DNA of 64,000 bases, from positions 1 through 64,000 of IMG/VR virus record IMGVR_UViG_3300020037_003335, one strand, 5' to 3'. Both the position numbers and the translations under genes were made by a program. Position 1 is the first letter of the stretch. Each line of letters starts with the position of its first letter. The stretch is from a virus (lineage: Duplodnaviria > Caudoviricetes). Shown here piece by piece: positions 4,857 through 64,000 of this stretch. The notes under the pieces are model-generated. The model made no database searches, was not told the DNA's origin, and saw nothing but the letters and a program-made list of their open reading frames with translations.

Positions 4857-5367
4857 CTCTGATATAGAAAGTAACTTCTGGCAACAGAATCCAGCTGCAT
4901 TAACTATTCCTGAGTTTAAAGAGAAATATGATCAAGATAAAAGTAAACAGAAAACAAACAGCTCTAAAATGATGTGGTGTTTATTCATGTTACGTGATCA
5001 GACTAGCTTAAATAAACTCAGGAATATGAGTGTAGCAGATAAGATTGCTGAACTAACTGTAACGTATTATGATGGTGATTGGAAAGAAATTGAAACTTTG
5101 TACTCAGCATACGATAAACATGTCAGCAGTTATGTACATAAAAGGCTAGCATTCTGGAAAGATCAATTAGAAGAGCGTGAAGCTTACATACGAACTTTAA
5201 AGTATGACATAGATACTGAAGCAGATAAGAAAGAAAAGATGTTAGCTAGTATGTACAAGCTGTGGCAAGACTATGAACGTGCTGAACGTATGGTTAAAGA
5301 AGAAGATAATAAAGCTGAAACCAAAGGTCAACGCAGAGAGAGTGCTAGTGAACGTGGCGAGATTTAA
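4834..5367 (+). CDS. conserved pre-terminase protein (possible small terminase subunit)
   Basis: helical 177-aa ORF immediately upstream of terL. Confidence 0.55.
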   Translation: MEHNLVSNSDIESNFWQQNPAALTIPEFKEKYDQDKSKQKTNSSKMMWCLFMLRDQTSLNKLRNMSVADKIAELTVTYYDGDWKEIETLYSAYDKHVSSYVHKRLAFWKDQLEEREAYIRTLKYDIDTEADKKEKMLASMYKLWQDYERAERMVKEEDNKAETKGQRRESASERGEI

Positions 5368-40300: not shown

Positions 40301-40890
40301 AACTTTCTTCAGCTGATATAGCTGCTTTAGGTGTAGGTGGAGCTAACGCTATGGCATCGATACTTACGCTTCAACAGAAGATGTATGATAATGAGATAAC
40401 AGATAAATCTGGGGTGTATAATATGAAAACTGAGTTACCTGATAACTTTACTAATCCTGCATTAGGAGCTTTACGTGCTGGATTACAATCAAGTGCACAG
40501 AATAATAATTGGAAAAATACTTCAGCTATGAGTAGTGAGATGCTATCTAAAACTGTTACAGGATTAAACTCAGCTTTACTTGAACAGTCTAGACAGAATG
40601 TAGGTTTATTTAATGCTAAACAAGCTGCGATTTATCAGGCATTAGGAATTGATACCGCTAATAAACAAGCTTGGAATAAAGACAAAACAGCTTTAGGTAA
40701 TTATAAATTATCTGCAATAGGAGAAAACCTTTTGAAGATGGCTAGTAATGGAAATACACGTGCTGCGGAAAATGAGTTAGCACAAATGGATGACGCTACT
40801 TTACGTGCAATGTTAGTTACAATTGGACCTAATAGTAAATATCTTACTGAACAGATTGAACGCATTATTAATTCAAGAAAAGGTAAATAA
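37342..40890 (+). CDS. ejected cargo protein with Gly/Ala-rich hydrophobic segment and repeated AxGG motifs
   Basis: 1182 aa, no Cys, position after muzzle. Confidence 0.7.
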   Translation: MATNKGKTGTKNTQTSGYTPSKSVVKVVDPRTGKPYMYYKTYDAIFDYNGNQLDSDDFRHIRELTKITPKKDYPTLVAEKKKELREKGITSEYAAYYRPGESEKALSIIDYSAGYLDYTMADKDLLDSDMAIENAKKLKVESQLNDEDRALKKGTILKGVDIPLLWSLGMPAKGRFPGMTTRGSWDISDYRPTRGSENFPYYFTPLGKTYNTLEEKENRNAIIDTTIMTALRDYRSDPVKYANTSMEMYDISNRLGNLGSYGMSLAPDSSYLSLHDKWDLDPNASGHMPKFAPDFVYSAGLTELGIPKKDHARMIKDFKAGKSVTEIAGFAPTVPVYDRIYQNSKGESIKEILEALQNAGIVTPISVHPKYNDRYNYENRMEKFAYGGKVKKYANGGKLPIDMYGRSVRKYEGGGRTPINIAPIESLPAGTIQNPAYQEYLAKINSDGIEKVAQSPGLLSTKSSSTTGDAVGAIGGIAGGFLSSAGTKQVEKGHMIGGTAMQAAGAVAPIATNPALLTATGGLSALAIPLAAGIGALAGIPKQKKYNRIEDADNIEEGMAMYQGLNQQNNYMQDPIRYAAYGGKINHYGDGGESYDPTTDPNLMKEVVITGARKSIVADMFAGIIENMNTSGKAKNRKNNLEVMKTLTAYLQNPVQTSNFLSMPTGKAPAFYGDSNVAQFPGAYMPKAAYGGQQGELAQLEQLNGVKENYVDKYGRTKTTNATESHDAMASKGKTNTPTDYLQNGDNIFSAKSYSKNELAAILGAHEVLTGENVKLGLDVLTPYYNTKSKTKISPADINKVVANKFNPKNLTNNSFNTAAINARNQTYANLATTKFNDALNPATFQGIAQQGNQQIEQILHAAYGGKIKKYTYGDGPYRMQSPVMIPDIVPPSAEAKWAEAQNLPVELAPPFDKTAWDNRPVNGVYEEWKGIPYTHPGSNTDPFADSGMGPQQEWKGIPYNYPGYNYTSPQSLEDSSTSTNKKSPYKLSSADIAALGVGGANAMASILTLQQKMYDNEITDKSGVYNMKTELPDNFTNPALGALRAGLQSSAQNNNWKNTSAMSSEMLSKTVTGLNSALLEQSRQNVGLFNAKQAAIYQALGIDTANKQAWNKDKTALGNYKLSAIGENLLKMASNGNTRAAENELAQMDDATLRAMLVTIGPNSKYLTEQIERIINSRKGK

Positions 40891-49400: not shown

Positions 49401-52400
49401 AGAGATACGAGTAGAAGGTGATGATATAGCTGAGTACAGACAAAACAGAGTATTCTCAACAGCTTCATCTAACGTAGAGACATCTAGAAATATAGGTGCT
49501 AATGAACAAATAGATGATGCTCCTAAATATATACGTGCAGATCCAGCTAATCCAAATGAGTATACAATATCTATAGCTGTACATGGAGAGCACTATATAG
49601 TAGAGAAAGAAGACGCGGATAAAGAAGCTGTGTATGCTCCAATAGAATTGCCTAAACCGCCAGACGGCTATGATCCTACAAATAATAGCCCTGAAAATAA
49701 CGAGTATAAAAAGAAGTTAGAACTGTATTACAACGCAGAAGATTTATCAGATAAAGGATTAACTGAACAAGAAATTGCAGCTATAACAGAGTTTAGAAGG
49801 TACTCAGCTAACAACAGGTTCTTTACATGGACAGATGCTAATGAAACTATACATAAAAATATTGCAGGAAAAAAGTTATTTTTCCGTGCAGCTACATATA
49901 AGAATATACAAGATGCTGCTAAGACCAATCCTGATTTACAAAGCATTATAGATGATATAGATAATCAGTTAAAACTTATACAAGGGTCTTCTGAACAACA
50001 GCGAACAGCAAATACATTACAAGGTTTAATAGATGGAAATAATGTTATATTAATTCCATACGAAGTTGTTCCTGGTGTGAATGGGGGAGCTCCTACTATC
50101 AGACCTGTAAAAGGACTTAGTTCTACAGAGAAAAGATTTAATGCAAGTAATCCTAAAGCTAAAATTGAACCTAGAGTATTATACAGTTCAAGACCATTAG
50201 CAGACACTGTATACAAATCATGGAATAGTGCAGACAAAATTGTTACTACTGTTGTAAATGCTAACACTGAACTTGGTATAGAAGATTTTAATACAGCTAA
50301 AGCTGAGGTTGAAACTAAATTAGATATTGAATTAGTAGCTCCAAGTTCAATGGTGTTAGATGGTAAAGAAATAAGTGCTTTTGTGAAAAAATATGGTATA
50401 TCAATAACAGTTAATAAAAATGAAGTTAAAATACTGTACACATTAGATGGAGATAAGAAAGAACTTACCATATTAAATACACAAGCTGAATATAAAATAC
50501 TACACGCTTTAGGTAGAGATGCGCTTAAGCTGGCAGTAATAGGTGGCATATTAAAGAAGGTATACACAACTCAAACAAAAGAGTTAATTCGTGCACCTCA
50601 AGGTAATGCGTATTTACAGATTATTAAAATTAATAGAGGTGTACCTGTATACGCACAAAAAAGAATTGCAAGTAGCAATTCTAAACAAGATTTGAAAAAC
50701 GCTGAGCTAACTCCAGTGTATATGCCATTAAGTGAAGTACTACCTAATGAACCTGGATTACAATTAACTGTAGTAACTAGAAAGAATGCGGCAGATCACC
50801 CAAATGCAATAGCAGGTGACTTAGTTGTACTAAGTTCTAATGATTTACGTTTACCTGTAGTAACATCTCTATTCTCTGATGAAACTGGAGAAGCTAAAAC
50901 ACATAAAGCTAATATGCTAGATGTGTTAGGTTTAACTATTTTAAAAGCTGTAGAAACAGAAGCTAAAGGTGATTTAGATGCGCTAAGAGAATCTGTTCCA
51001 TTTTCAACTGGTAAAATAACTCCAGTTAAAATACAAGTAGGTAATGAAGAAGTAGACATAAATGGCTACGGTATACTACCTACTGATATGGGGCAAAGCA
51101 GAGATGGTGTAGGAGCTTTAAACTTTTACTTAAACTTTGGTAAATATACTGAAAGCCATTTAGCTAGTAAAGAACGTAATCAAATTTATATAGGTCAAGG
51201 AGATCTTGTATTTGTATACAATACAAGAGTTAATGGAGTTAAAACTCCTAAGACTACTAGAATAAAACTTAGCAGCTTAATTAGAACAGATGCTGAGGGA
51301 AATAGGTATGTTAACTTGCCAGCCTTATTTGCAAGTGCTACTAATGCTACGACTGAAGGCAGAGCTCTAATAGAACTAGAAAACTATTTAAACAGTAAAC
51401 GTATAAACGTACATAAGAAATTATTAGAATCAAGCTCTGGTGTTACATACATACCTTCAGTTAAGAAAAATGATGCAGGAAATATAACCACTGAAAGTAC
51501 ATTACAATACACAAAAGAAACAGTACCATACAGTGTATGGGCAGCAAAAAATATTGTAAGAACTAACCATGATCCTAAAGCTGCAAGAAGAACTATACAA
51601 AGAAATCTAGTACATGATACATCATTTATATCTGCAGAAAACGCTGCATCACTAGCCGCAGACATACTGAAAGCAGAAGCTGCTAAAGAAGAAGCAAGAA
51701 AAAAACAAGAAAAAGAAAATCTTGCTGCATATACAGCTGCTGCAGCTAGTGCTAAACATACATATAGTAATTTAGCTGAATTAAAAGCGTTATTAGATAC
51801 GGATGTGTTTATGAAATCAACATTAACTAAAGGCACTAAAGCGGCATTAAAAGGTGTTATAAATTTAGCTACAACACTTGCTTCTATAGACCCTTCTAAT
51901 ATAGCAACATTAAACAGTATTGGAATATATTTTAGTACGTCTGCTACTCCTATAACTACTGTAACTGCTGCAACTGCGCCTGTAATTACTGGTAATACAT
52001 ACAGTACAATAAAAGAGTTATTAGATATACTACAAGTTGAAATTGCAAATAAAACCGTATTAGGCAAAAAATCTAGTACAAAAGCTTTAGCTGGCGTGCT
52101 AAAAATAAGTCCTGATATTAATAAAGTAGTGCTATCTCCAGAGCACGTAAAATTATTAGAAGCTAATGGAATTTATGAAGCAGGAAAAGCACCAGCAGCT
52201 ACTCTAACACCTCCACCTCCACCCGCACCTATTATAACTGCAGGTAACCCAGCGGAAACAGCTTATAGTCATATTTTAAAAATGGTTGGTAATGCGGAAT
52301 TTATGATAGCTCTAGACCTGGCAAATAGAAACAGCAGCAAATTTTTAAAAGACTTTGCTGCCGATAAAGATAAATTTCAAGAAAATGTTGATAATGAATT

Positions 52401-55400
52401 AATAGCTGAAATAAGTGAGCTAAATGATGCATTTGAATTATGGAAAGAAGAAGCTGCAAAAGCTGCTATTACTGCACCTACAGATGATGATGGATTTAGT
52501 ATGAGCAGATTTAAAGACGCAACTAAAAAAGCTATTCAACTTGCAGAAGCTAAACGCAACATGGCTGCTATCTTCGGTGAAAAGTTTGCTGATGAAAATG
52601 TTCAAATGGTTGTAGGTTTAATACAAGGTGAAGGGTATGGAGCATTTACTGCTGATGGTAAAATATTACTGTCTAATTTAGCAGAAGCTGGAACGGAATA
52701 TCATGAAGCATTTCACCGTGTATGGAGAATGTATGTACCCAGTTCTAAACGAAGTGAATTAATTGCAGAATTTGAGACTCGTGCAGATAAAGAAGATGTA
52801 CTTGCAGCTGTTCGTGCTGCTGGATATAAAGGTAGTAGAGAGTATTTAATTGAAGAAGCTTTAGCTGAAGAGTTTAAATTGTATAGTGATAAATATAAAT
52901 ACAAAAATGGTAAACTTGTACCTAAGAATAAAATAGAGCGTTGGTTCGACAAATTAATAAAGTTCCTCAGAGCTTTAATAGGACGTCCTATACAGCAGCA
53001 ATTCTATGATGATATACTTGCTGGTAAATATAAGAACGTGGCACCTAAGTATACTTATAAGGCACGTGAAGCAGTTTACAGTAAACGAATTGCGTTTAAG
53101 GATTTACCTACTATTGATGTGAGTAGTGCAGATATTAATGCTGTTAATACAGCAATAACTGTAGACTTATTTCAAAATGAATTGGCAAAAGGTAATATAC
53201 ATATCTTATTAAATCCTCCAGCAAATGGTTGGGATACAATAGATTCTTATACTAGAGCGCTTGTATCGCAAGGTACAGCAGTACTAAAGAAATTTGTATC
53301 AGATCGTAGTAAAATTGTATACGGTAACTACAAAGATGTATACGGTGTCCCAGCATCAAGTGGACTTTCTTTAGGCATATCGCATATATTATCATTAATT
53401 AATAATGATAAACTTAATGCTACAGAAAAGTATTATTTAGTAAATTCAACAGAAGCTGTCCTATCGATAGCTAATAATGGAAATTTAGAGCTGATGATAA
53501 AAGAGCTAATGAAAAATACTTCAATGCTGCAAGTAGGAGAACAGAAAACCATAGCTAATATATCTGAATGGACAAAGAAATCTACAGCTGAAAGAATAGC
53601 TTACTTCGCAGTACAAGGTAATACTGATAAAGCTGTCATGGCAATTGGTAGTATTATACGTGCAAGTATACGAAGTAAATTAATAGATGATCCATCAGTT
53701 ACAGCTTTAAACACTATTAACGCTAATACAACAGAAAAACGATGGCCTACTTTAGATAGAGTGTTTTCTCAAACTATGAAAGATAGGATTAGTCCTCGCC
53801 CTATTGATTTAACAATGCTGTCTGTTTTACAAAAACATTTTCAGTTAGAGTCAGAGAAAGCAGCTCCGTCTACGGAAGAGCAAGATTCGTATGTGGCGTT
53901 ATTAAAAGTAGAATCATATAAAAACAGTAGTTCTTTTTATGTTCAATGGACAAAAGCTATTGCTAACATTGGAGGTAAATTAAAGTATGAAAGAAATGAT
54001 GGGTATGAAAATGAAAATAATGATGATGAAAATGATGAAACCTCTAATGATGAAGGTGTAGAAGAAGAGGGTATAAATACTAAAGAAGATGAAGTAGTAA
54101 GTAAAGATGGTGCATATGATAAACTTGTTTATGAAAAGAATCCATTATCATCTATAACTACTTTGATTAAACTACTTATCAAAAGCATTCCACAAAAAGA
54201 TGCAAGAGGAAATAATGTGCTACATCCTACATTAGGTGTAGTGATGGCTATTCCTTGGGAGTCGACTATTAATAAATTCATTAACAGTTTGGCTAATATT
54301 CCTACATGGGCTATGTGGAAAGAGTTTGAAAAGTTTGTAAAGATGACACCAGAGGTTTCAAGCATACTTAAAAATATTGAAGAAATAAAAACTTCAGCTG
54401 ATAAGTCGGATGTAAAAGTAAAACTTAACAGAGCGTTCGGGAATCATATTTACAATTTCTTGATAACTTTGATAAATAAAGATAAAATTGTTACAACTAG
54501 TGCTAACAGTAATACTGGAGATAAGAGATCGATAAATGCATGGAAAAATAATATGACAGCCATTGATGATCCAGCAGTATTAAATATACTAAAAGATCAA
54601 TTTGAATATGCATTTAAGGCTACTCATGATCCAGTACTTACAGCAAGAAGTGGACATAGTGGTAATGTTATGCCTATAACCAAAACAAATGAACTTCCAG
54701 ATGAAAAGCATACAATTAATAGAGATAAAGTTAATACTGCTAAAGAATATGCAGAGTATTTAGGTATCACATTAGATAGTGAAATATACGAAGCCGAATA
54801 TGCTTTTGATGAAGGTAAGAATATTTATGATACAGTAAAAGCTATCTACTTAAATGCTATGAACACTATGACCAAAGAGGAAAAAGATGCAGTACTTAGA
54901 AATCCAACTCAACTAGCTAATAAAATATTTGGCAGTGATGCTGAATTTGGAGGAACTGCTGTAGGCACTAAGATAGAAGCGTTAGCTAAAAAACAAGCTA
55001 AGTATTCTAGAGATGTATCTCAATCAATTACCAGTAACAATAAGAAATTATTTGCAGCTAACTTGAATAGTGCTATGACGGTAACTTCTGATGGATTAAA
55101 CTACATAAGTAGCTTAGAAGAAGGAGAAGTAAATAATTATATTCAAGATGAATTAACTAATAGATATCAAGAGTATTATGGTAAAGAAGACTTGTTGACT
55201 GCTAATGCTGAAACATGGTTAGAAGCCACTTTGTATAGAGAAGGAACGGGCATTAAACGACATCCGATACACCTAGCTAGAACTAAATTAATGCTATTAA
55301 AATATTCTGGTGTGTTTAACAGTAACTCTGTAAGCAGCGTGCTACTACGAAATAGTATTACAGGCAGTAGAATTGAATTGTCTGTACTAGACAGTATAAA

Positions 55401-58400
55401 AAATACTATGGTAACTGTTGACCCTACTAATATTGATAATATTAGTAGAACTGAAATAGCTGCACATAATGTTAATTTAGCAGCTGATGGTGTAGTACGA
55501 GTTATACAGCACGCAGATAGAAGTATGGCGTATGGAATAAAATATGATGTTGGTTCAGATAATATATCAGGTACTTTGATAGAGCATTTAGAAGCTTTTA
55601 CAAACACTGTATTAAACCAAATAGCTGACAAATCAAAGACCACGGCAACATATACTGGTAAGAATATTAAGAATATGGCAACACTAAATTCAACTATTAC
55701 TCCACAAATGTTTGGTGTACTAGACGAGCTAGTTATTTTTTTACATGAAACACATAATGCACGATTAGCTGATAAATCGAAAATTACATTTGATGCATAC
55801 GTGAAACTCTTGCCAGATTTGATTTCTAAATACACATCTACTGAAAAGCAAACCAATTCTGTTCTTACATTCAGTGGATCAATACAAATAGTAGACGATG
55901 TTACTAGGTATATAGGAGTTAAACAAACTGAGTTTATGACTGATTATGTTAAGCGTAACTTACACTTAACAAAGAAAATAAGAAAATACAACACTGAAAC
56001 AAAGAAGCCTACTGACATGTATGTAGGAAGATATATTTCAACTAAAGAATTTGATAACTCAACTGCAGCGCAAGAAGCGGTGAATAAAATAATAAATAAA
56101 TCTTGGGCACAAATGTATCTTGGACATATAGAAGAAGTATTATTGTTTTCTGGTAATGCAGATTTGTATGGTACAGCAGAAAATATGTTTAAACGTATGA
56201 GTGCACAGTCATCTACTGGTATTGTTAGTACAGCTACAGCAGAGTTCTTAGATGAGATTGTTGCAGTAAATAAAGCTGCTTTGTCAACTGCGAATCAAAA
56301 TTTAAAATTAGACGCTACTCCGTACACTAGTCCTACAACGACAAAGAATTTTGCACTTATACAAGAAGTAATTGCTAAAGAAGAAGAGTTTACTAATAAG
56401 AAATTAGGAGACGAAATCTATGCTGCACATTATGCTTATAACTATGACTTACAAAGACTGTTAGGAAAATCTTCTGCTGAAGCTAAAGCCACAGCTAAAA
56501 GAATTGCTGAAAATATGTCTAAAGACTTCAAAGATAATATTAATGAAAATGATGGACAGTCTTGGTTAAACATATTTGCGTATCGCCAATACTTAAAAAG
56601 TGTGGATAAATGGACTGATCGTCATCAACAATCGTTTGACTTTGAAATGCTTGTTTTAAATGATATGATCAGAGTAAAAGATAATATAACCAAAGGGCTA
56701 ACAGCTGAAGCTGACATTACATACACACCTTTTTCTGTACTTGTTGCTCAGATATTACATCCAGATTGGGGAATAACCACAGAAAGTTATAATGGGATAG
56801 TAGCTGGAAGAGCGTCAATTGACGGGGAATTAGTTGAACCAAAAGCATTTGTAGATAGTATAAACAAATGGTTAACAGAAACAAGAGAAGGATTTGCACC
56901 ATTAAAACCACAGTATACTGGACCAGTATGGTTAGACAAGAATCATAAAACAATAGATAGTACTAAAAAGATAACTGTTACTGGAATAAGAAAAACTTCT
57001 TATGATGTACTACTTCCAAGTATGTTACGTGGAGAAGAATTTACTTCACGTCGTAAGTTTGCTGATCTTATGCTTAACATGCATGTTAATGGAATTGATG
57101 TACTACATATGGAGTCAGCAGCTAAATCAGGGACTAAAACTCCAATTCCATTATGGAATAGAGATGCTAATGGAACCATTTCAACCCTGAATGACAACTT
57201 GTACACCCATAAAAATCACACATTCTTAGAGTGGCAGTACATGAAAGATCAGCAAAACATTGACACAGAACAGAAAAGTAAATTAAAAGATTCTACTCAA
57301 GCACGTAAAAATATGCTTGCTAACCAAACTCATCGTGGTGTACCAATTGATTTTCCTATGTATAGCATAAATGAAAACGGTGAAAAAGATTATATGAAAG
57401 AAGATGAATGGAAAGCAGCTTGGGATAATTTATCTGAACAAGAGAAATTAAATAGCAGTTCTTTATACACATCTTTTGCGGCTGTTATCGAAGTTCAAAA
57501 TGATTTATTACTGCAAGCTGTAGAAATGTTAGAGAAAGAATTAAAGATTAACAGTAATAATCCAGTAGAAGTAACAGAGCAAATTGTTAAAGTGTTAAGA
57601 GAAGCTGCAACAAAAAGAGAGTCTTCTGATAATATACTTAATGCTATTGAATCAATTATAGATCATGGTTGGGTTGATGTATTACCTAATAGAAATACTA
57701 TAGAACCTATACTAATGTCTTTGGTTAGTAATAATTTAATAACTGTAAAACGATTTGGAAATGCTGTACCACAACTAGCAAGTACAGGTATGGATTTAGT
57801 TGGAACAGTGCGTAAGAATAATTCAGCAACAGCCGAGTTAAAAACGTACCAAATTAATGAAAACGGTGAAACAACTCCAGCAGAGATTATAACTGTACTA
57901 CCAAAGCAGTATCAAAAAGCTGTACTTGCAAAGTATTCTAAAAGAGTGAAACGAGCACTTACATTATTTGAAGCTGTTGAGATGTTAAATGAGGATTTAG
58001 CAAGGGAAAAAAATGATCCAGAATATATGGAAATAGAAATATTTGCATTACGTATTCCTAACCAACAAATGAGTTCTAATGATGTATTCAGAGTTAAACA
58101 ATTTTATATTGGAACAAAAGAAAACTTTGTATATGTCCCAGCTGATATTGTAGTAAAAGTAGGTAGTGACTTTGACATAGATAAACTACAAATGTATTTC
58201 CCTAATATGGATAAAGATTTTAATGAAATTAGATACGAAGGTGGTGCATCATCATTAAGTGAAAGTAGTAAAACTACATTTGAATCAGAAATATCAGACA
58301 GTGAATTAGATGCCTACATGGGACACCTAATGCAAACAGGGCAAGTAGAAAAAGAAGATTGTAATAAAGCAGAAGATGGTGCAGTAACAGCTAACTTTAC

Positions 58401-58566
58401 TCCTGGTGGTAAGTGGGAAACAGTGAAAGATTTAAAAGGAATGCCTTCACATAAAGAAGGCGGTGTTGACCTACAAATCAATAAAGATGGTGATGTAACA
58501 TTCAAGAACACAAGTGGTGCAATAATAACAGCAGCTGCTGGTTTAGTAATTCCAAACATTAACTAA
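43435..58566 (+). CDS. giant virion RNA polymerase polyprotein (N-terminal part of core, including catalytic loop) with zincin domain
   Basis: 5043 aa; HEAFH at 52702; NDGQSW, PLKPQY, MESAAKSG, RIPNQ and GSDFDIDK (DFDID 58168-58182). Confidence 0.92.
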   Translation: MGKLDAMYAMMGDKPIRPRTSLSESDETNVIYGTTPQKELDTYTYEGLNYYNPTDPEASQEARADNQGYVDIIGKGLANMGVSLLKNVAEAPAYIATIATSPLVGVGTAMSGGNGWEAMGTYVFNNQYLQTVQGIKDNIDENVLKIYVPPSVQEGGLWDKFTSMQNMVSQGSEMMGFVLSMYVPGAVVGKLGWGTKLVAGLNAAEAVGDVGLGTKAFNMLAKNFVKGSDAVFGEAGIGKILAGEARAGTVTGEALGIATNVDDAAKLAQGTAASAEAVVSNLDAAKKMLVYTNNAARSTDTGLAIAFNTTLESASEATQSYRDIYDAAKAKGYSEQDARNAAASGATNVFGANMSILAVTNIIGEKFILDGFERVAKGADNNKVAKMIINDAIGDKTSNITELLKHNWFNQSKFGKTLVGKALEPAAKVGGKFAIGAVKEGIVEEGMQTNVSQVAKADALKGEKTFQREGWTFGTSSILTFINGISNYGTLFSEKGNQELAESILMGGIFAGAIEFGGGAIRSLSGETKKANAARKVGYDDLRNNFIYSFKSHNEYFQREPEKNTDGTPNPKAGKLILDQQGRPVLTAEAEGNMKKTEAVRLAQAAHADIITALDPDSVEAEFANFMLEYNVFVDMLSREGGSELMKQAIDGGHLEALIAARYKANNEGNEIDPAMLTSMVNRWKTLGKKTEDQLNFIRSTHSPEMYINYDKNDPKEAAMFKAFNDDMFNERLSNLALHEHVKQVRMDRMKSYEDAVKESAELQTKMDALSFNGAALTPEQVAIKTEYDAAQKMFDDYEKQRPLFSDILDENKAIPADAAPRIKAKYDKIKNKQKIANQGGFSDEMTQEELDFMDVYDKDTGKSQIDAANTYFATAKEVKKINDNPTHAYTKTNSERKLTEMQISAAKEAVTALEKDFETLNNTELGVAKKYKLVGPEFKAAWDKYKADKLKESQQAATDAKDAADMQAKTDGELASAGFDKDMRASLINHLIASGTAVSKDSAEAAQVVFKDLEFTLNTTALQQEYNAYTDKTTEEAKKKLREIEMLTKLAAHPGGWAIVMVQAMDNNGRYVYENGKPRFEKRIISKRAAKYVGKVNDREATRKLFPLMFDENGNKLDEQEVANKREALIATNTAASIAQAAALLSQSKKFVWTTKDKTVERHMEIRVSKDTAFYSKAEVQKHISKFNTSSDYYSNINADGSKKFVKDAKGKDTKKLVENPRNARLRMDEASVDWDQMRGGFGPAIYVGRISKRSLVLSMAPVNKNIVLASNKMKEALAQRQAMIKALEDVRKYNTDLNKSVKNKTAALQTKLNALPKTQNTLAAIAREARLLAYEIEGLTIKIASAENKKNKFKKQDGKLAKDAQSDIDKLNALKEEKDKRLAEIPAIRQALEAEISNAIANINVIKKQIEEHQQEAANLVAYNDAAGLLISTLGSLSEEDIYKLDPSDINSLLTSEGKDLLDVYYQQVKEDLTGKLIVNRAVDKIIVDKENELKAYNKSKQEFEKQLANRKAFNEKLKAITTADVTSDTADALNNLLTAYLQIHNNQYKDAPKALATSIKDSTVKYIRYIEDLLVDIGHDRVIPNFNNAQVAELKLKLETTLTRLKSIAAASTIVEAYSSLADVDNYPASDDLQQAINAVGKKVESYLDLEESLTNILQDLTAIYDFTIDLTKDTKKEIRAKIEATIKNILDSRKEAEKIDANIKAKIAGLDSNINKVNKELQVLQNAAMTDIDFETGAIKTANDEVVIDNFRDLYLAELKASKLAELSEIQKVAGDLQAPIKTTLDDLTKQRKELEKELLQSILSNKEVTATKKLTSFLQLIPQFEKQFNSDSAALLQTVRAVFSRSKTIDVASTASDKKDEEVLASMLNPSTALTLLNRYIADFNVTANSENQISPITEAEYKAVVVTFIDALDAGTKAATEGVLTKLRTTITSIDRVQSIAVDLASKLIVDMDKFSADIARRTQVALNKADRDNGDATYIDDEEIRVEGDDIAEYRQNRVFSTASSNVETSRNIGANEQIDDAPKYIRADPANPNEYTISIAVHGEHYIVEKEDADKEAVYAPIELPKPPDGYDPTNNSPENNEYKKKLELYYNAEDLSDKGLTEQEIAAITEFRRYSANNRFFTWTDANETIHKNIAGKKLFFRAATYKNIQDAAKTNPDLQSIIDDIDNQLKLIQGSSEQQRTANTLQGLIDGNNVILIPYEVVPGVNGGAPTIRPVKGLSSTEKRFNASNPKAKIEPRVLYSSRPLADTVYKSWNSADKIVTTVVNANTELGIEDFNTAKAEVETKLDIELVAPSSMVLDGKEISAFVKKYGISITVNKNEVKILYTLDGDKKELTILNTQAEYKILHALGRDALKLAVIGGILKKVYTTQTKELIRAPQGNAYLQIIKINRGVPVYAQKRIASSNSKQDLKNAELTPVYMPLSEVLPNEPGLQLTVVTRKNAADHPNAIAGDLVVLSSNDLRLPVVTSLFSDETGEAKTHKANMLDVLGLTILKAVETEAKGDLDALRESVPFSTGKITPVKIQVGNEEVDINGYGILPTDMGQSRDGVGALNFYLNFGKYTESHLASKERNQIYIGQGDLVFVYNTRVNGVKTPKTTRIKLSSLIRTDAEGNRYVNLPALFASATNATTEGRALIELENYLNSKRINVHKKLLESSSGVTYIPSVKKNDAGNITTESTLQYTKETVPYSVWAAKNIVRTNHDPKAARRTIQRNLVHDTSFISAENAASLAADILKAEAAKEEARKKQEKENLAAYTAAAASAKHTYSNLAELKALLDTDVFMKSTLTKGTKAALKGVINLATTLASIDPSNIATLNSIGIYFSTSATPITTVTAATAPVITGNTYSTIKELLDILQVEIANKTVLGKKSSTKALAGVLKISPDINKVVLSPEHVKLLEANGIYEAGKAPAATLTPPPPPAPIITAGNPAETAYSHILKMVGNAEFMIALDLANRNSSKFLKDFAADKDKFQENVDNELIAEISELNDAFELWKEEAAKAAITAPTDDDGFSMSRFKDATKKAIQLAEAKRNMAAIFGEKFADENVQMVVGLIQGEGYGAFTADGKILLSNLAEAGTEYHEAFHRVWRMYVPSSKRSELIAEFETRADKEDVLAAVRAAGYKGSREYLIEEALAEEFKLYSDKYKYKNGKLVPKNKIERWFDKLIKFLRALIGRPIQQQFYDDILAGKYKNVAPKYTYKAREAVYSKRIAFKDLPTIDVSSADINAVNTAITVDLFQNELAKGNIHILLNPPANGWDTIDSYTRALVSQGTAVLKKFVSDRSKIVYGNYKDVYGVPASSGLSLGISHILSLINNDKLNATEKYYLVNSTEAVLSIANNGNLELMIKELMKNTSMLQVGEQKTIANISEWTKKSTAERIAYFAVQGNTDKAVMAIGSIIRASIRSKLIDDPSVTALNTINANTTEKRWPTLDRVFSQTMKDRISPRPIDLTMLSVLQKHFQLESEKAAPSTEEQDSYVALLKVESYKNSSSFYVQWTKAIANIGGKLKYERNDGYENENNDDENDETSNDEGVEEEGINTKEDEVVSKDGAYDKLVYEKNPLSSITTLIKLLIKSIPQKDARGNNVLHPTLGVVMAIPWESTINKFINSLANIPTWAMWKEFEKFVKMTPEVSSILKNIEEIKTSADKSDVKVKLNRAFGNHIYNFLITLINKDKIVTTSANSNTGDKRSINAWKNNMTAIDDPAVLNILKDQFEYAFKATHDPVLTARSGHSGNVMPITKTNELPDEKHTINRDKVNTAKEYAEYLGITLDSEIYEAEYAFDEGKNIYDTVKAIYLNAMNTMTKEEKDAVLRNPTQLANKIFGSDAEFGGTAVGTKIEALAKKQAKYSRDVSQSITSNNKKLFAANLNSAMTVTSDGLNYISSLEEGEVNNYIQDELTNRYQEYYGKEDLLTANAETWLEATLYREGTGIKRHPIHLARTKLMLLKYSGVFNSNSVSSVLLRNSITGSRIELSVLDSIKNTMVTVDPTNIDNISRTEIAAHNVNLAADGVVRVIQHADRSMAYGIKYDVGSDNISGTLIEHLEAFTNTVLNQIADKSKTTATYTGKNIKNMATLNSTITPQMFGVLDELVIFLHETHNARLADKSKITFDAYVKLLPDLISKYTSTEKQTNSVLTFSGSIQIVDDVTRYIGVKQTEFMTDYVKRNLHLTKKIRKYNTETKKPTDMYVGRYISTKEFDNSTAAQEAVNKIINKSWAQMYLGHIEEVLLFSGNADLYGTAENMFKRMSAQSSTGIVSTATAEFLDEIVAVNKAALSTANQNLKLDATPYTSPTTTKNFALIQEVIAKEEEFTNKKLGDEIYAAHYAYNYDLQRLLGKSSAEAKATAKRIAENMSKDFKDNINENDGQSWLNIFAYRQYLKSVDKWTDRHQQSFDFEMLVLNDMIRVKDNITKGLTAEADITYTPFSVLVAQILHPDWGITTESYNGIVAGRASIDGELVEPKAFVDSINKWLTETREGFAPLKPQYTGPVWLDKNHKTIDSTKKITVTGIRKTSYDVLLPSMLRGEEFTSRRKFADLMLNMHVNGIDVLHMESAAKSGTKTPIPLWNRDANGTISTLNDNLYTHKNHTFLEWQYMKDQQNIDTEQKSKLKDSTQARKNMLANQTHRGVPIDFPMYSINENGEKDYMKEDEWKAAWDNLSEQEKLNSSSLYTSFAAVIEVQNDLLLQAVEMLEKELKINSNNPVEVTEQIVKVLREAATKRESSDNILNAIESIIDHGWVDVLPNRNTIEPILMSLVSNNLITVKRFGNAVPQLASTGMDLVGTVRKNNSATAELKTYQINENGETTPAEIITVLPKQYQKAVLAKYSKRVKRALTLFEAVEMLNEDLAREKNDPEYMEIEIFALRIPNQQMSSNDVFRVKQFYIGTKENFVYVPADIVVKVGSDFDIDKLQMYFPNMDKDFNEIRYEGGASSLSESSKTTFESEISDSELDAYMGHLMQTGQVEKEDCNKAEDGAVTANFTPGGKWETVKDLKGMPSHKEGGVDLQINKDGDVTFKNTSGAIITAAAGLVIPNIN

Positions 58567-58567
58567 G

Positions 58568-60502
58568 ATGCAAAAAGCAACAAAAATAGAAGCACAAGGA
58601 GGGGAGATAGTAATAAGAAACAATTTTGATGATGTTGCTATTATCCCCAGAAACCTTGTAAAGAAATATCAGGCGTATATGAAAGCTGGCTGCGACGAAT
58701 GTATTGATGAGCTGGTAGCTAGTCTACCAGCTATGAGTCAGTATGCAGCTGATGGTACTGTGATACCACAAGGTAAAAAAGTTAAAGTAACACTGCCTGA
58801 TGGTGAGCAAGCTGAGTACTCTACAGATTCTGTAGAGTACAAAAACTTGTATAGCTCAGGTAAACTAGCTAACGTTGTTAAGGATAAAGTAACAGGTGAA
58901 GATACATACGTAATGCCATCATTAAAGGAAGTTGAAATAGTAGGTAAAGCTACAGGTGCTGCGAGAGATATGATTGATACAAAAAAGAGTTACTCTAAAG
59001 AGCAGTACATAAAAGAAAAACTACCTGCTTTTGCAGGTAGTTTAGGTGTTACGGCTGATAATTTAGGAGGGAATGCTGAAGGATATAAACGAACAATTAA
59101 TACCAAAGTAGCTGAAAACATATTTAAAAGAAAGCCAAATGCAAAAGAAAAAGACTTAACTCCGTATGAGTTAGGTGTGATTAATAATTCGGATTTGGCG
59201 TATAAATTAAAGCCTGATATCTTAGATAGATTTGAACAAGGATGGTTAAGTGTTGGTAATGCTGGTAGTCCTGTTGAATTTAAAAATCCTAACTTAACTC
59301 AAGATCAAGCTAGAGTGGAAGATACTCCATTAAATATACTAGCCCCAATTGAATACGGTTCTAAGGCTGTACAAGCATTGTACAAACCAGGTTATACTCT
59401 AAAAGATGCAGCAAAAGGAAAAGCTAATAATGCAGGAGTAGTGGAAGATATGGTAACTGACCCTTTAAATTTACTTGGCTTAGGCTTAATAGACGATTTA
59501 CCAAAACTAGGTAAAGCTGCAAAAGCTTTAAGTAAAGAACGTCAGATAGCTGAGAGTGTTGAAAATATGACTAAATTAGAAACACTTTCACAAGATGCTC
59601 CTAAATGGTTGTCCGACTTACTATCAGATACATCTTTGAAAAATAGAACAATTGCTAAAGAAGGTAATGCATATTTTAATGCTCTTGATAACCCAGAATC
59701 ATTAAAAAGATTAAAAGACTTTAGTAATGAATATGATGTAGATTTAGTTTCTGCTTATAAGAGAGCTAAAATAAGATGGGAAAACGGAATGACTATAGAA
59801 GGCCACTCTAGATTTAAAATTGCAGGGGATGAAGTATTTAAAGATAATATTACAGATGCAATAGGAGTATCTACATACGATAATGATTTTATATTAAAAG
59901 AATATCTTTCAAAGAATAAATCTAGAAATAGAAATTTATCTGAAGGTTCTGTTAATTATATAAATCAAAAAGCAGATATTCGTGATTTTCATAGGGTCGT
60001 ATGGCATGAATTATCTCATGACATAAATAAAGACATCATAGGTAACGATAAATTTACTGCCGCTGTTGCCAAAATTTTTGAAACAGATATAACTAAAATT
60101 GATAGAGCAGCAGCTGAAAAAGCACGGCAGATGAGTAAGAAGCTGTTTAAATCAAATTGGAAAGAAAGAACAGCTAAAGTTAATCAAAGTTTAGACGAGC
60201 GTATAGCAGAGGAAACAGCATACATAAGCAATCCTACTGAAACTTGGGCATTTTTATCTACCAATTTAAGACAAGATTTAAAAAGTGCTGGTATTATTAA
60301 AGATTATAATGAAATATTAACGCTTGAAAAATTAGACCAGGCTGTCAAGAATGGTACTACTATTTACAGTAGATTTGAGCCCTACATTAAAGATAAAGCT
60401 GAATTTATTAAGCTTTTTAATAAGATGACTTTGGGTATAGGTACTGCTGCAGTTACTACGCCCGCACTAAAAGACCAGCTAAACAAAAACAAATCTAAAT
60501 AA
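58568..60502 (+). CDS. zincin-like metallopeptidase cargo protein inserted between the two RNAP halves
   Basis: 644 aa; WHELSH at 60005 plus downstream PTETWA; N-terminal IEAQGGE and CDEC. Confidence 0.75.
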   Translation: MQKATKIEAQGGEIVIRNNFDDVAIIPRNLVKKYQAYMKAGCDECIDELVASLPAMSQYAADGTVIPQGKKVKVTLPDGEQAEYSTDSVEYKNLYSSGKLANVVKDKVTGEDTYVMPSLKEVEIVGKATGAARDMIDTKKSYSKEQYIKEKLPAFAGSLGVTADNLGGNAEGYKRTINTKVAENIFKRKPNAKEKDLTPYELGVINNSDLAYKLKPDILDRFEQGWLSVGNAGSPVEFKNPNLTQDQARVEDTPLNILAPIEYGSKAVQALYKPGYTLKDAAKGKANNAGVVEDMVTDPLNLLGLGLIDDLPKLGKAAKALSKERQIAESVENMTKLETLSQDAPKWLSDLLSDTSLKNRTIAKEGNAYFNALDNPESLKRLKDFSNEYDVDLVSAYKRAKIRWENGMTIEGHSRFKIAGDEVFKDNITDAIGVSTYDNDFILKEYLSKNKSRNRNLSEGSVNYINQKADIRDFHRVVWHELSHDINKDIIGNDKFTAAVAKIFETDITKIDRAAAEKARQMSKKLFKSNWKERTAKVNQSLDERIAEETAYISNPTETWAFLSTNLRQDLKSAGIIKDYNEILTLEKLDQAVKNGTTIYSRFEPYIKDKAEFIKLFNKMTLGIGTAAVTTPALKDQLNKNKSK

Positions 60503-60503
60503 C

Positions 60504-63500
60504 ATGGGGTGTAAATTTAAATATAACGGACAAACATACGAGAGTGAGGCAGACTTAAAAGCTGTGCTTAGACAAGAACTGAAAGCTAATACAGCAAAAG
60601 TTAGAGATGGTGATAAGCAACCAACTACAAATTCTATTGGTAAAAATGAAAGCGTACTGGGTACTGATAAATCACTGTATATATCAGTGCCTAAGTCACA
60701 GTTTTTGAGAATTTTAACTGTGGACGGACTAGGGTTAAATTATCAGGAAATGGCTGCAGAACAGTCGGACTATAATGCTTATTACACTAAAGAGCATTTA
60801 ATATATTCTAAATCTGATGACACTATGTTAGACAATAATACTGTAAGAATAGAAATAAATGCTGAATATCTAAACAAAGATGCGTCTAATGAATCTGATA
60901 ATTATGTGGCAACTTCGTCAACTATTCCTTATGCTGCATTTAGAAGTATGACTGTAAATAATCAAAATGTAAAAGATAACCTTATCAGTATTTACAAAAC
61001 ATTTCCAGATGGTCAGATAAATGTAAATGATTTTGCGCAACACATAAAAGTTGAAAATAAGCCATCAAATAAAACTCCTGGCAACATTACATTAGATCCA
61101 ATTAAGAAAAGTGCAGGTATAAACCAGGCGGCTAATATTAGAGAGCAGTTACGCAAAAATTATTTAAGTAAACTATTTAATGTTAAAGCTTCTGATGCCA
61201 AGTTAAATTTTAATTTAGGCAATAGTACCAGAGACGCTTTTATTAATATGCATAACGCATACAATAATACAATTGTATCTCAAGCAATTAAGTTAGCCAA
61301 TGAAGACGAGTACTCTAAAGCTATTACCCTATTAAAATCTCATAATCTACAAGGTGCGATATCTGATTTATTGATTATTAAGCATAGATATACAGAGTCT
61401 TATGATTCTATTTTAGAAAATTTAAAAAGTTATAATTTATCTCAGAATATAATTACAGATGTAATATCCAAGTTATCTACGTTACCTTTAAAAGGACTTG
61501 CCACAAAAGCTAATTTTAGTTTCATTGCTACTCAACCAACTACAAACACTACTACACAGCAGCCAGTTGTAGATGAAATCACTATTCAGAAAATGGCTGA
61601 GATTATGAAAGAGATTTATCCAGAAGCTGTTACTGATCAATCTCAATCTGTTACTACTGATGATAAGTTTATGGCAGCTAAAATGGTAGTTGATTTTGCT
61701 AATGGTACAGTAGATACACTTCCTGTTACATATGCTAGCTTGTATATAGCTTGGTTTAGAAATACACCTTTAGTACAAGCTGGTATTAAAGCTTATGGGG
61801 GAAGTGAAGAGGCATTAGTACAAGCTATTGGTGAACAAGCAGTTGTACAAAAAGGTAAGGCTTGGACATGGTGGAAAAAGTTTTTGGCTTGGTTACTAAA
61901 CTCAGCTAATGAATTATCTGATTTATCGAAAACTGAGTTACGTAATATCTTAACAGATGCTTTTTTAAGTAGACAAGATATTACTGCAACTTTAAACGGA
62001 ATTGTTTATTCTAAAGATCAAGTTAATGGAGAGTGGGCACCTGTTGATTTAGATATTGAATTTCCTATTGTGTATCCAAGTGACAAGGCGTTTAAAGCAG
62101 CACTTGATGCTGAACAAGCAGCTAAGGTTAAAAATGATGCTATGATTAAACCTGCGTGGAAAAATAATAAACGAGCTGCTTTAGAGAATAGATTGTTAGA
62201 TATGCATAAAGCTATTGCTTTACATCCTGTAAATGCACAAAATTTACTTGCACCTGTGTCTACAGTTATTACTAAAGGTATAGTAGAGAAATTAGGCATA
62301 AGAGCTAAACATAAAACTCGTGGTGCAGTTATAGACCCACTGTCTAATATTAATGCTAGTATTGCAATGGTACAAGGTAAACAAGGTGTAGGTATAGTAG
62401 CTAATGCAATTAACACTAAAGCTGCTTTAACGGGAGTTGATGCTAAATTAACTCCTATGTACCCTGTACAAAGTCCTTTAAGTAATGATGAAAAACATAT
62501 TCAACTACCTATAAATTTACGAATGTTGGGAATTGAAAAAGTTGAATACGCTGACGGCACATTAGCGTATTCATTAGGTAAACTTGTAGACACTTTTGGT
62601 AACTCAATTATAGCTAATTTATCAGAATCTTTGACCCAACAAGTAGATAATGTTAAAGATCCCGTAGCAGTTGAATTAGGTTATACTTTAAAGACTTTAG
62701 GATTAACATCATACATACTTACTTTAGGAGTTCCACAAGAAGTTCTTGCAGGTCTTACAGCTAAAGGCGGTGTGGTTACAGCTTGGAATGATAGAGTAGA
62801 AGAAAATGAGAATTTGTTTCACAAAGGAGCTACTGAAGAATCTTATGAAGTTGTTGAATACACAGGTGAACCTAGAAAAATATCTACACGTTTTGAAGAA
62901 AGTAATTCTACATTGAAAATTGAGTTTATAAATAGTCTACTTAGAAAACAGCCCGTTCCATCTAAATATATTGAACCTGTTGTAGATAATAATGGAAGAC
63001 CTAAAGGGCATATACTTAAACACGAAGCACTTGATATTGATAACGTATCACTAGATAAATATGATGCAGTGAAATTGTTGTTTTATTGGGAATTAATTGA
63101 TCAAGCTAGAGCATACGGCAATACTATAAAAGCTTTAACTGCGGATACTAAAACACATAAATCTATTGATGCAGCTGCTCAACAGCAGTTACTGATTGAC
63201 CAGCAATTACTAGGTATTGAATCTATCGTAGATAAAGATGATATATCAAAAGTTATATCTTCTAGAGCTGCTTTAAAATCTAATACTAAATCTGTAATTA
63301 GTCCTTTCTTTAATATGCAGAGAAAGTATGGTGAATATTTTAGTAAATATTTTTACACGCACGAAAATGGAATCAGTGCTTATTTAGCTGCAAGTTTAAA
63401 AGCTAGGTATAAATTGTATAGTGGGGATAGACTTAACAGACTTATTAGTACAGCGCATAATGATTTTATGATTTACCTTATGACAAGAATGACCGCAGTT

Positions 63501-64000
63501 AATCCTAACGCTACAAGTAGTTTGGCAAAGTTTAATAACGTTAATGCTCCATTAGTTGGAGTAGATGCATTATTAAAGCATGGCGAAGGACTTAAAATGT
63601 CTGCTGTAAATAGTATATACAATAACTTAACTTTGATTTCTAAACAGCCTAATATAACGGCTTCTAGAGCTTACTACTATGCTCAGCCAGCTACTGTAAG
63701 AAATAATAATACTACAGCATTATACCAGAATGTAACACCTGAAATGGCTCGCTCATTACTTGACATATTTAGATTTGAACTAGGCAGAGTTATAAAAGCT
63801 GATGTTAATATAGATAATAATGTTAGTATCTACTTACAAAACATTCCATCTATAGATTTGATTATGTTTAAAGACTCTGCTATAACTACTTCGGCAGCTA
63901 ATAATTATATTGAAATATTTGAAGAGTTGCGTACCTTATCTCCAGGATTAATACAATTGTTTAACAGTATTTCATTATTTCAAGCTGGGTTAAATAATTC
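60504..64000 (+). CDS. C-terminal part of virion RNA polymerase (partial, runs off the window; absent from the ORF track)
   Basis: ATG 60504 (MGCKFKYNGQTY), frame open to the end; AALENRLLD...LHP (62175), GKQGVGIVA (about 62377) and VDNVKDP (62643) motifs. Confidence 0.88.
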   Translation, partial: MGCKFKYNGQTYESEADLKAVLRQELKANTAKVRDGDKQPTTNSIGKNESVLGTDKSLYISVPKSQFLRILTVDGLGLNYQEMAAEQSDYNAYYTKEHLIYSKSDDTMLDNNTVRIEINAEYLNKDASNESDNYVATSSTIPYAAFRSMTVNNQNVKDNLISIYKTFPDGQINVNDFAQHIKVENKPSNKTPGNITLDPIKKSAGINQAANIREQLRKNYLSKLFNVKASDAKLNFNLGNSTRDAFINMHNAYNNTIVSQAIKLANEDEYSKAITLLKSHNLQGAISDLLIIKHRYTESYDSILENLKSYNLSQNIITDVISKLSTLPLKGLATKANFSFIATQPTTNTTTQQPVVDEITIQKMAEIMKEIYPEAVTDQSQSVTTDDKFMAAKMVVDFANGTVDTLPVTYASLYIAWFRNTPLVQAGIKAYGGSEEALVQAIGEQAVVQKGKAWTWWKKFLAWLLNSANELSDLSKTELRNILTDAFLSRQDITATLNGIVYSKDQVNGEWAPVDLDIEFPIVYPSDKAFKAALDAEQAAKVKNDAMIKPAWKNNKRAALENRLLDMHKAIALHPVNAQNLLAPVSTVITKGIVEKLGIRAKHKTRGAVIDPLSNINASIAMVQGKQGVGIVANAINTKAALTGVDAKLTPMYPVQSPLSNDEKHIQLPINLRMLGIEKVEYADGTLAYSLGKLVDTFGNSIIANLSESLTQQVDNVKDPVAVELGYTLKTLGLTSYILTLGVPQEVLAGLTAKGGVVTAWNDRVEENENLFHKGATEESYEVVEYTGEPRKISTRFEESNSTLKIEFINSLLRKQPVPSKYIEPVVDNNGRPKGHILKHEALDIDNVSLDKYDAVKLLFYWELIDQARAYGNTIKALTADTKTHKSIDAAAQQQLLIDQQLLGIESIVDKDDISKVISSRAALKSNTKSVISPFFNMQRKYGEYFSKYFYTHENGISAYLAASLKARYKLYSGDRLNRLISTAHNDFMIYLMTRMTAVNPNATSSLAKFNNVNAPLVGVDALLKHGEGLKMSAVNSIYNNLTLISKQPNITASRAYYYAQPATVRNNNTTALYQNVTPEMARSLLDIFRFELGRVIKADVNIDNNVSIYLQNIPSIDLIMFKDSAITTSAANNYIEIFEELRTLSPGLIQLFNSISLFQAGLNN

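Follow-up and report, generated by a model that had tools for sequence, protein, structure and literature searches.

Crassviruses rank with the most abundant viruses of the gut. The order, packing and injection of their megadalton protein cargo pose an open problem, which we address here for the cargo block of a 64,000-nucleotide (nt) stretch of viral DNA (positions 1 to 64,000 of the IMG/VR record IMGVR_UViG_3300020037_003335, hereafter the window). In this block a virion RNA polymerase (RNAP) is interrupted by two chain breaks, which are accompanied by almost the only cysteines of the cargo and by a cassette of two small modules that we call M1 and M2.

The RNAP-associated cargo proteins of crassviruses are packed in the virion, and ejection with partial unfolding has been proposed for them (PMC10172136). 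Yutin et al. (PMC7886860) described that the boundaries of the RNAP proteins vary within clades and invoked unknown expression mechanisms. In the pre-ejectosome of cyanopodophage A4, cryo-electron microscopy resolved a disulfide between gp27 Cys1715 and gp26 Cys5 (PMC12002296), and depletion of Cys in ejected proteins is already known for the N4-like phages (PMC11445570). Polyvalent proteins (Iyer et al. 2017, PMC5512222; the word 'crass' is absent from the text) are giant, virion-delivered multidomain proteins in which virion RNAP is combined with zincin-like peptidases, ART, lysozyme-type and other swappable effectors.

An interrupted virion RNA polymerase

Every gene of the window lies on the plus strand, and the source record measures 115,979 bases with a completeness of 64% (CheckV). 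The open reading frame (ORF) at 7835-10318 is a crass-type portal that aligns over ~90% of its length with annotated Crassvirales portals at ~30% identity (E 1e-72 to 1e-79), and on this basis the window is read as the structural and ejected-cargo half of a distant crAss-like phage. Its five cargo ORFs are located at 37342-40890, 40905-43424, 43435-58566 (ORF4), 58568-60502 (ORF5) and 60504-63998 (ORF6). In the full record ORF6 runs on to 64559, with a C-end reading ...ETLCS, and is followed by a sixth cargo ORF at 64579-69054 (ORF7; 1491 amino acids, aa), which starts with MAEC, has no further Cys and matches crAss001 gp49.

ORF4 (5043 aa) is a gp67/gp47-like cargo protein fused to the N-terminal part of a virion RNAP. 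By blastp, its residues 60-651 match gp67 (g067) of phage phi14:2 (E 6e-23), whereas residues 4668-4925, which include the catalytic DFDID motif at 4912-4916 (nt 58168-58182), match phi14:2 gp66 (g066) at 1134-1374 (E 3.5e-6); residues 4547-4946 match cr118_1 gp14 (E 5e-12), and the RNAP region matches crAss001 gp50 at E 3e-5. The post-catalytic (bridge-helix) region is found on ORF6 and not on the DFDID chain, giving a split RNAP variant: ORF6 residues 555-649 match phi14:2 gp66 1471-1567 (E 1.4e-5), and gp66's bridge helix has been placed at 1529-1559 (Drobysheva et al. 2020 preprint). In a relative (L029), one continuous chain corresponds to ORF4 as far as residue 4933 and then, past 3 residues, to ORF6 from residue 558 onward. 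Judged by this 3-residue join, the window RNAP is interrupted ~20 residues past DFDID, in the loop just behind the catalytic motif, by ~1,311 extra residues including two chain breaks. The original prediction had taken EKEDC and MGC, the sequences around the Cys of ORF4 and ORF6, for the places where one RNAP chain naturally ends and another begins. The alignment with L029, which joins these points, supports that view, as does the apparent rule of Cys-flanked breaks in Crassvirales described below. In phi14:2 and crAss001 the RNAP is one chain, whereas that of the window is fused to a gp67-like protein and broken after DFDID; the regions examined in these two phages have no M1 or M2.

The pieces are ORF4, which closes with Cys4976 and the 65-aa M1, ORF5 (M2 and a zincin-like payload), and ORF6, in which the Cys3 leader and an in-chain payload bay are followed by the remaining RNAP. 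The C-end of ORF4 reads ...GSDFDIDKLQMYF...QVEKEDC-NKAEDGAVTANFTPGGKWETVKDLKGMPSHKEGGVDLQINKDGDVTFKNTSGAIITAAAGLVIPNIN, then TAA at 58564; after EKEDC the chain continues KAEDG...GGKWETVKDLKGMPSHKEGGVDLQINKDGDVTFKNTSGAIITAAAGLVIPNIN up to this stop. At the ORF4/ORF5 junction (58564..58570) the ORF4 stop and the ORF5 start form TAA-g-ATG in a +1 frame; the two are tightly coupled, separate genes. ORF5 (644 aa) opens MQKATKIEAQGGEIVIRNN / MQKATKIEAQGGEIVIRNNFDDVAIIPRN...GCDEC...YAADGTVIP and is separated from ORF6 by a single base between stop and start (TAAcATG). The ORF6 leader (60504..60635) starts MGCKFKYNGQTYESEADL / MGCKFKYNGQTY (MGC), with the N-side junction Cys at 60510-60512. Insertion sites of the cassette differ between phages, lying from ~60 to >1,300 residues past DFDxD or in other cargo chains.

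Database searches with these proteins were of limited use. Pfam, PHROGs and PDB sequence searches with ORF4-ORF6, M1 and M2 gave nothing usable, the ORF4 tail as a single-sequence query found no relatives among viral contigs, and no Pfam polyvalent-protein model matched any of the window's own proteins. With tblastn the C-part of ORF6 gave one partial match, and a word-seeded homolog search with ORF7 returned two proteins only.

Cysteines at the chain junctions

The five cargo ORFs of the window hold, in order, 0, 0, 1, 2 and 1 Cys, that is 4 in 8,873 aa (0.045%), against 328 Cys in 11,836 aa (2.8%, summed per-ORF counts) for the other plus-strand ORFs. The original prediction had listed these four residues (EKEDC at 58360, CDEC at 58691 and 58700, MGC at 60510); both the count and the positions hold, and the pattern extends to the full record, whose six cargo ORFs carry 6 Cys in 10,550 aa, each at a chain junction. 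These are Cys4976 of ORF4 (58360..58362), its lone Cys, C42 and C45 of ORF5, Cys3 and Cys1350 of ORF6, and Cys4 of ORF7. The first Cys-bearing chain (ORF4) has no N-side Cys, and the last chain (ORF7) has no C-side Cys.

The terminal-Cys pattern recurs in the homologous proteins of phi14:2 and crAss001 (Drobysheva et al. 2020 preprint; PMC10172136). In phi14:2 the single Cys of gp67 is its final residue, gp66 has C3 and C2179 of 2180, and gp65 (g065) has only C3. In crAss001 gp47 has only C2339 of 2341, gp50 has C5, C1334 and C2404 of 2412, and gp49 has only C5; gp47 is coded on the strand opposite gp50 and gp49, yet the pattern is kept. Likewise, gp14 of cr118_1 ends ...KHCKGE, and gp15 opens MICPN without a further Cys. 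Among the relatives that were fetched, 116 Cys-poor chains (127,706 aa) contain 151 Cys: 44 in the first 6 residues, 19 in the final 5, 26 right in front of M1, 20 in the CxxC of M2 and 42 elsewhere. Leader-type starts, with a Cys at position 3-5, were seen in 44 distinct chains. A census of 81 cargo junctions gave Cys on both sides in 45, on the C-side only in 4, on the N-side only in 6 and on neither side in 26. Where a C-side Cys is present, a partner lies within the ~6 first residues of the next cargo chain at 45 of the 49 junctions; for junctions with the Cys before M1 the next cargo chain supplies an N-side Cys in 24 of 28 cases.

Chain breaks occur at positions that are non-homologous between phages, no Cys is found at the gp67|gp66 junction that is fused within ORF4 (C4976 being the only Cys of this chain), and junction Cys are encoded by both TGT and TGC. 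Taken together, these observations point to a link at the protein level, for which a disulfide would be the simplest chemistry with one Cys per side, and Cys-flanked chain breaks are probably a general rule across Crassvirales, absent where chains are fused. Because the first chain has a C-side Cys only and the last an N-side Cys only, the arrangement suggests a head-to-tail series instead of intrachain cyclisation, and an intramolecular N-to-C disulfide was discarded on this ground. An origin of the terminal Cys at the DNA level or in translational coupling was rejected as well, given the opposite strands of crAss001 gp47 and gp50 and the use of both codons.

The bond in phage A4 is the nearest parallel, as it joins a near-C-terminal Cys of one ejection protein to Cys5 of the next inside a podovirus capsid. 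In both C4976/C3 and C1350/C4 a C-end Cys is matched by a Cys among the ~6 opening residues of the following cargo chain, and the chemistry of A4 is proposed for them. The two systems also differ: the A4 proteins are unrelated in sequence, A4 has one link against a series here, A4 has neither RNAP nor M1/M2, and its bond has been seen whereas the crass-phage bond is deduced. In the searched portions of the crass-phage literature, including the crAss001 atlas paper (PMC10172136) and the Drobysheva et al. 2020 preprint, the word 'cysteine' is absent, and 'disulfide' appears in the atlas paper only, where the passages listed concern the tail hub.

The original prediction named a disulfide or a Zn clasp as the join between the two RNAP chains. 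In a four-Cys form of the latter, C4976, C42 and C45 of ORF5 and C3 of ORF6 would make up one interchain Zn(Cys)4 clasp that holds three chains. This would agree with the presence of four Cys from three chain ends in one cassette and with a CxxC at a helix N-terminus. We nevertheless consider such a clasp very improbable, for about one third of the M2 copies have no CxxC and the junction Cys persist without it (in L007, L030, L035, L036 and L038 both the pre-M1 Cys and the leader Cys are kept). Moreover, 21 junctions of the census carry a single Cys on each side without an M1/M2 cassette, the junctions of phi14:2 and crAss001 are built in this way too, and most Cys-flanked junctions come without a cassette.

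Elsewhere in the window the opposite extreme to the near-Cys-free cargo is seen in two giant fibre-like ORFs of the outer virion, at 19579-25386 (120 Cys in 1935 aa, 6.2%) and 25380-29393 (53 in 1337 aa, 4.0%), both with many CC, CxC and CxxC clusters. Non-junction Cys of cargo chains are mostly CxxxxC pairs in one payload type (NGCINGIC, KCESDQC, ECKEDQC), found in L007, L019, L021, L028 and L012.

The M1 and M2 modules and their payloads

M1 (58369..58563) is the C-terminal adaptor of ORF4 and reads KAEDG...GGKW...KGxPSHKEGGVDL...AAAGLVIPNIN, with A-x-x-G at both ends. Its general form is A-x-x-G ... GGxW ... KGxPSHxxGG(V/I)D ... A-x-x-G-L-V-I-P, in which A7, G10, G19, W22, G30, H34, G37, G38 and G64 are invariant in the alignments. 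A profile search (hidden Markov model) over 1.84 billion representatives, clustered at 50% identity, returned 530 clusters at E<=1e-3, of which 432 reach E<=1e-10. No cultured phage with the cassette emerged from the searches. Context was counted for the best 150 of the 530 cluster representatives: a Cys lies at most 40 aa upstream of M1 in 149, M1 stands at the very C-terminus in 125, and two copies are present in 9. Chains in this set that start with Met have a Cys in their first 6 residues in 100 of 145 cases. No Pfam or PDB sequence match was obtained for M1, its scores in an Atlas feature search stayed below 0.9, and the AlphaFold2 (AF2) model of M1 alone, with three short strands, is of low confidence (predicted local distance difference test, pLDDT, 61.8).

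Some giant proteins end in two or more M1 copies in tandem (P0064, P0065, P0066 and P0086, the last with a run of GGKW-type repeats), and in some of these the last copy reads ...A(A/R/K)CGC(V/Q/L)I..., with extra Cys. P0088, P0108, P0119, P0132, P0138 and P0198, which otherwise differ from each other, carry M1 followed in cis by a recurrent C-terminal payload of ~110 aa (...NPIEFEAMSKVLSQRNKHLNWV...YYSQNGLIKH).

M2 (58568..58765) is the N-terminal adaptor of ORF5 and reads IEAQGGEIVIRNN..IIP..helix..GCDEC..LP..YAADGTVIP, with its CxxC at 58691-58702. It is built from a hairpin, (I/V)E(A/V)xGGE...IIP, and two helices, the second of which starts with the CxxC, followed by YAxDG(T/S)V. In the AF2 model of ORF5 the hairpin covers residues 14-26 and the helices 28-39 and 43-51, at pLDDT 74-87. 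Searches with M2 gave no match in Pfam or PDB. We also considered M2 as a thioredoxin-like oxidoreductase and rejected this, as the likeness of the modelled ~60-aa hairpin and two helices, without Pfam match, is confined to the CxxC at the helix N-terminus.

According to the original prediction, the SHxxGG and ExxGGE motifs normally belong to one domain that is broken here by a stop codon. The comparison does not support this: none of the 150 best M1 representatives holds the second motif within the M1 chain, and M1-stop-M2 is the normal state. M2 always begins a chain, starting 6-21 residues after the stop codon in all fetched loci. The other expectation of that prediction, that the two pieces occur side by side at varied insertion sites and with varied payloads, is what the profile searches returned. 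In the loci found with the M2 profile (35 viral, plus metagenome loci) the ORF directly upstream holds M1 in 35 of 35 viral loci and likewise in the metagenome loci, and in the 22 loci found with the M1 profile the next ORF is an M2 gene in 20 of 21 informative ones. A C-terminal module on one chain and an N-terminal module on the next thus co-occur obligately, as in a cognate docking pair. In the type A layout, which the window shares with about 17 loci, M1 stands at the chain end. Spacing and frame between the M1 chain and the M2 gene vary (1-nt gaps, ATGA overlaps, +1 or +2), and stop-codon recoding or frameshifting across M1/M2 was rejected for this reason in favour of separate coupled genes.

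The layout, with a Cys right before the C-terminal fragment and the N-terminal fragment on the next gene, might recall a degenerate split intein or Hint pair, in which M1 (from its Cys) and M2 would trans-splice or cleave, joining EKED to the downstream Cys. Some M2 copies even read VEAEHNE...N..G...IIPxN, reminiscent of intein blocks F and G, and crass-like phages are rich in inteins (PMC7886860). We give this hardly any credence. No intein or Hint match was found for M1 and M2 in Pfam or PDB sequences, even at E<=10; HN is GG in the window copy; there is no conserved terminal Asn or +1 nucleophile (after ..IIP, M2 shows RN|L, AN|K, KD|K and AK|K); the distance from the upstream Cys to the first conserved motif of M1 varies from 1 to 12 residues; and M1 may be internal or in tandem.

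More can be learned from loci where the parts are rearranged. In L003, L004 and P0047, which show 80-90% identity in the RNAP flank, an ORF5-type body is fused right after ...AAAGLVIP without an M2 in between, and M2 heads the next gene instead, a LysM-amidase. In L008, M1 / M2-M1 / M2 alternate along successive chains, including one M2-M1 protein. In a distant, Cys-free group (L039-L044, for example L041 5025-6570), M1 is the N-terminal part of Gly/Ala-rich proteins 300-360 aa long and a small M2 protein is encoded by the overlapping next gene, in a genomic context other than the RNAP block. Since a payload is thus found either in cis without M2 or in trans with M2, and the modules alternate in L008, M1 and M2 are likely a docking pair. 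That the cassette is a new pair of co-occurring modules is well supported.

Alternatively, it might be argued that M1 and M2 are paralogous signals for virion targeting or ejection that bind a third component in common, be it the portal, the capsid interior or cargo protein C1, their adjacency reflecting the stacking of cassettes. The hairpin cores and closing A-x-x-G-x-V-I-P of both modules align, M1 occurs in tandem, and it is N-terminal on payloads in P0051, the 587-aa ORF of L006, L033 and L039-44, like the N-terminal capsid-targeting tags known from T4 and P1. We regard this as rather unlikely, given that the order of an M1 chain followed by an M2 chain is near-absolute in both directions, that M2 is never internal and never behind M1 in the same chain, and that M2 is lost exactly where the payload is fused to M1.

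The A-x-x-G motif bounds the modules and marks the points of difference between fused and split versions (P0047, P0095, a 39-aa ORF of L008). The original prediction assumed trimming at these sites, for which we found no evidence; recombination joints or a structural strand would explain the pattern no less well than a cleavage site. The 39-aa ORF (L008 12256-12375) consists of a Cys leader (MSCIYKYKGQKYSEEQFKEYFINNKQEF) joined directly to the last strand of M1 (AAKHGLIIPKN), with an M2 gene next, and represents either the scar of a recombination event or a docking stub of minimal size. An [FY]AxGG motif, perhaps akin to the A-x-x-G at the ends of both modules, occurs in the first cargo protein of the window as FAYGG, YANGG and YAAYGG (38491-38530 and 39073); C1/gp45 of crAss001 has NAFAEGGG near residue 260, shortly after the tail-barrel-bound helix (214-245).

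Cleavage would be central if the cargo were a polyprotein in flux, with M1, M2 and A-x-x-G as linkers or cleavage sites for a maturation protease (for instance the embedded zincins); stops would then be neutral, since every piece becomes separate in the end. Fused and split versions of the same parts do exist, the modules are bounded by A-x-x-G, zincin-like domains have been predicted to process polyvalent virion proteins (PMC5512222), and some phages have a huge fused polyprotein (Drobysheva et al. 2020 preprint). Yet there is no sign of processing, and neither 'cleav' nor 'proteoly' occurs in the atlas paper (PMC10172136). Neutral stops would also leave the gain of Cys on both sides of the breaks and the confinement of M2 to chain starts unexplained, and we judge this account improbable.

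The ORF5 payload (58766..60502) has a mosaic middle (residues ~67-335), a zincin-like C-domain (~354-620) and a conserved hydrophobic tail with LKDQLNKNKSK. The C-domain has a conserved HELSH at 60005-60019, which is an HExxH motif (another is found in ORF4 at 52702). A putative metallopeptidase family, PF20573, is matched by 4 of 46 homologs, and structural neighbours in the Atlas resemble peptidases. These features would fit the combination of virion RNAP and zincin-like peptidases in polyvalent proteins. The AF2 model has a mean pLDDT of 60.7, Foldseek gave no match against PDB at E<=0.001, and tblastn against phage GenBank gave none either. Payloads headed by M2 are mosaic, including the zincin-like body of the window, LysM with Amidase_2 (P0061) and others.

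ORF6 contains what the comparison identifies as a second, in-chain payload bay at the same junction (60636..61673, residues 45-390). In the ORF6 homolog of L004 (5866-11331) this part is replaced by a 2OG-FeII_Oxy_2 match and a weak ART-PolyVal match, whereas residues 1-44 are kept at 95% and residues 391 onward at 86% identity; the leader is 95-100% identical in L003 and L004 despite the differing downstream sequence. Beyond the bay, ORF6 (61674..64000, to 64559 of the record) resumes the RNAP at about residue 555 (nt 62166). Payload chains that otherwise differ share a C-terminal tail, hydrophobic and then rich in Q/N/K (LKDQLNKNKSK, LYLQSQNQNKSEQ), in the window (60428-60499) and in L007, L008, L009, L017 and L026. 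It always stands directly before the next Cys-leader gene and might serve as a membrane anchor or as another element of the junction.

ORFs resembling GIY-YIG homing endonucleases lie exactly within Cys/Cys junctions or separate an M1 chain from its M2 gene (L009 8162-8914, L007 9286-10011, L013 8765-, L022 10712-); in the census 5 to 8 junctions hold such small, Cys-rich ORFs, which may create breaks or move cassettes. Their position in or beside junctions, the scar-like ORF of L008 and a 12-nt repeat, GCAGCTG(C/A)TGGT, at 58531 and 58745 might suggest a selfish cassette, with M1 and M2 conserved only as recombination or homing arms and without a role as proteins. Such a cassette seems a most improbable explanation, considering the invariance of W, H, GG and G of M1 across all 530 clusters, the retention of the pair in the other genomic context of L039-44, and the variation of frames and spacings between loci.

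Several known systems resemble the cassette in part. Docking domains of polyketide synthases and nonribosomal peptide synthetases pair a short C-terminal domain with a short N-terminal domain of the next-encoded polypeptide and thereby fix chain order; the likeness to M1/M2 would be functional only, as folds and biology are unrelated. The capsid-targeting sequences of T4 internal proteins and the Dar proteins of P1 are portable terminal tags that load passengers into the head for injection. These tags bind scaffold or head components, and in T4 they are cleaved off, whereas the partner of M1/M2 appears to be another cargo chain. Polyvalent proteins carry their payloads in one polypeptide; here the payload is a separate chain with an N-terminal adaptor, behind a matching C-terminal adaptor.

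Proposed mechanism and its meaning for crassviruses

The best explanation in our view, to which we give about an even chance, is a disulfide-tied cargo train that is interrupted in the RNAP and takes up passengers through M1 and M2. An interchain disulfide would connect Cys4976 of ORF4 with Cys3 of ORF6 and, likewise, Cys1350 of ORF6 with Cys4 of ORF7, so that ORF4, ORF6 and ORF7 would be tied head to tail into a near-linear thread still able to pass the tail. Each disulfide would stand in for the peptide bond of phages with fused chains. M1, placed right after the C-side Cys, and M2, heading the next chain, would form a cognate docking pair, in which M2 clips its passenger non-covalently to the junction, leading to packaging and ejection with the train. 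The same payload could be fused in cis to M1, and M2 would then be dispensable. More speculatively, the CxxC at the helix N-terminus of M2 might help to make or resolve the neighbouring disulfide, and the repeated A-x-x-G-[LT]-V-I-P might allow cassettes to recombine from one junction to another, possibly with the help of the GIY-YIG genes.

A number of points weigh against this mechanism. Virions are assembled in a reducing cytoplasm. No thioredoxin family was found in the 64%-complete record, and the search for Erv1 was void, its control giving no match in 14 control genomes. The disulfide is read from sequence, the junction counts come from related, non-independent loci, 4 of the 28 pre-M1 junctions have no N-side Cys on the next cargo chain, and the CxxC is missing from the third of M2 copies mentioned above. 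As to docking, contact between M1 and M2 is deduced from gene order and one fusion argument; the modules are only ~20 nt apart, and linkage alone could keep them together. Their hairpins align to each other (MAFFT), which would also suit paralogous signals for one third partner. Finally, in loci of the type B layout M1 is followed by a payload of 250-890 aa in the same chain, and is there internal and already loaded.

A stronger version of the disulfide train with M1/M2 docking can be formulated, in which M1/M2 is a portable two-piece coupling device that bolts arbitrary effectors onto the train at any junction. The CxxC of M2 would then act as a redox catalyst, forming the neighbouring interchain disulfide within the virion or else opening it in the host, and the device would control both order and release. 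We regard this version as unlikely.

What is new here is the M1/M2 cassette, whereas the tie by terminal Cys, for which phage A4 offers a precedent, is probably a general feature of crassviruses. With M1 and M2, two unannotated domain families of considerable size have been defined, of which M1 alone comprises 530 clusters. If M1 and M2 bind each other, they would offer a compact natural tag pair to load proteins into phage particles. If the proposed mechanism is true, Cys-flanked breaks and a docking cassette would make chain breaks in the crassvirus cargo tolerable, because the chains are re-tied after translation, and the junctions would serve as loading points for accessory enzymes.

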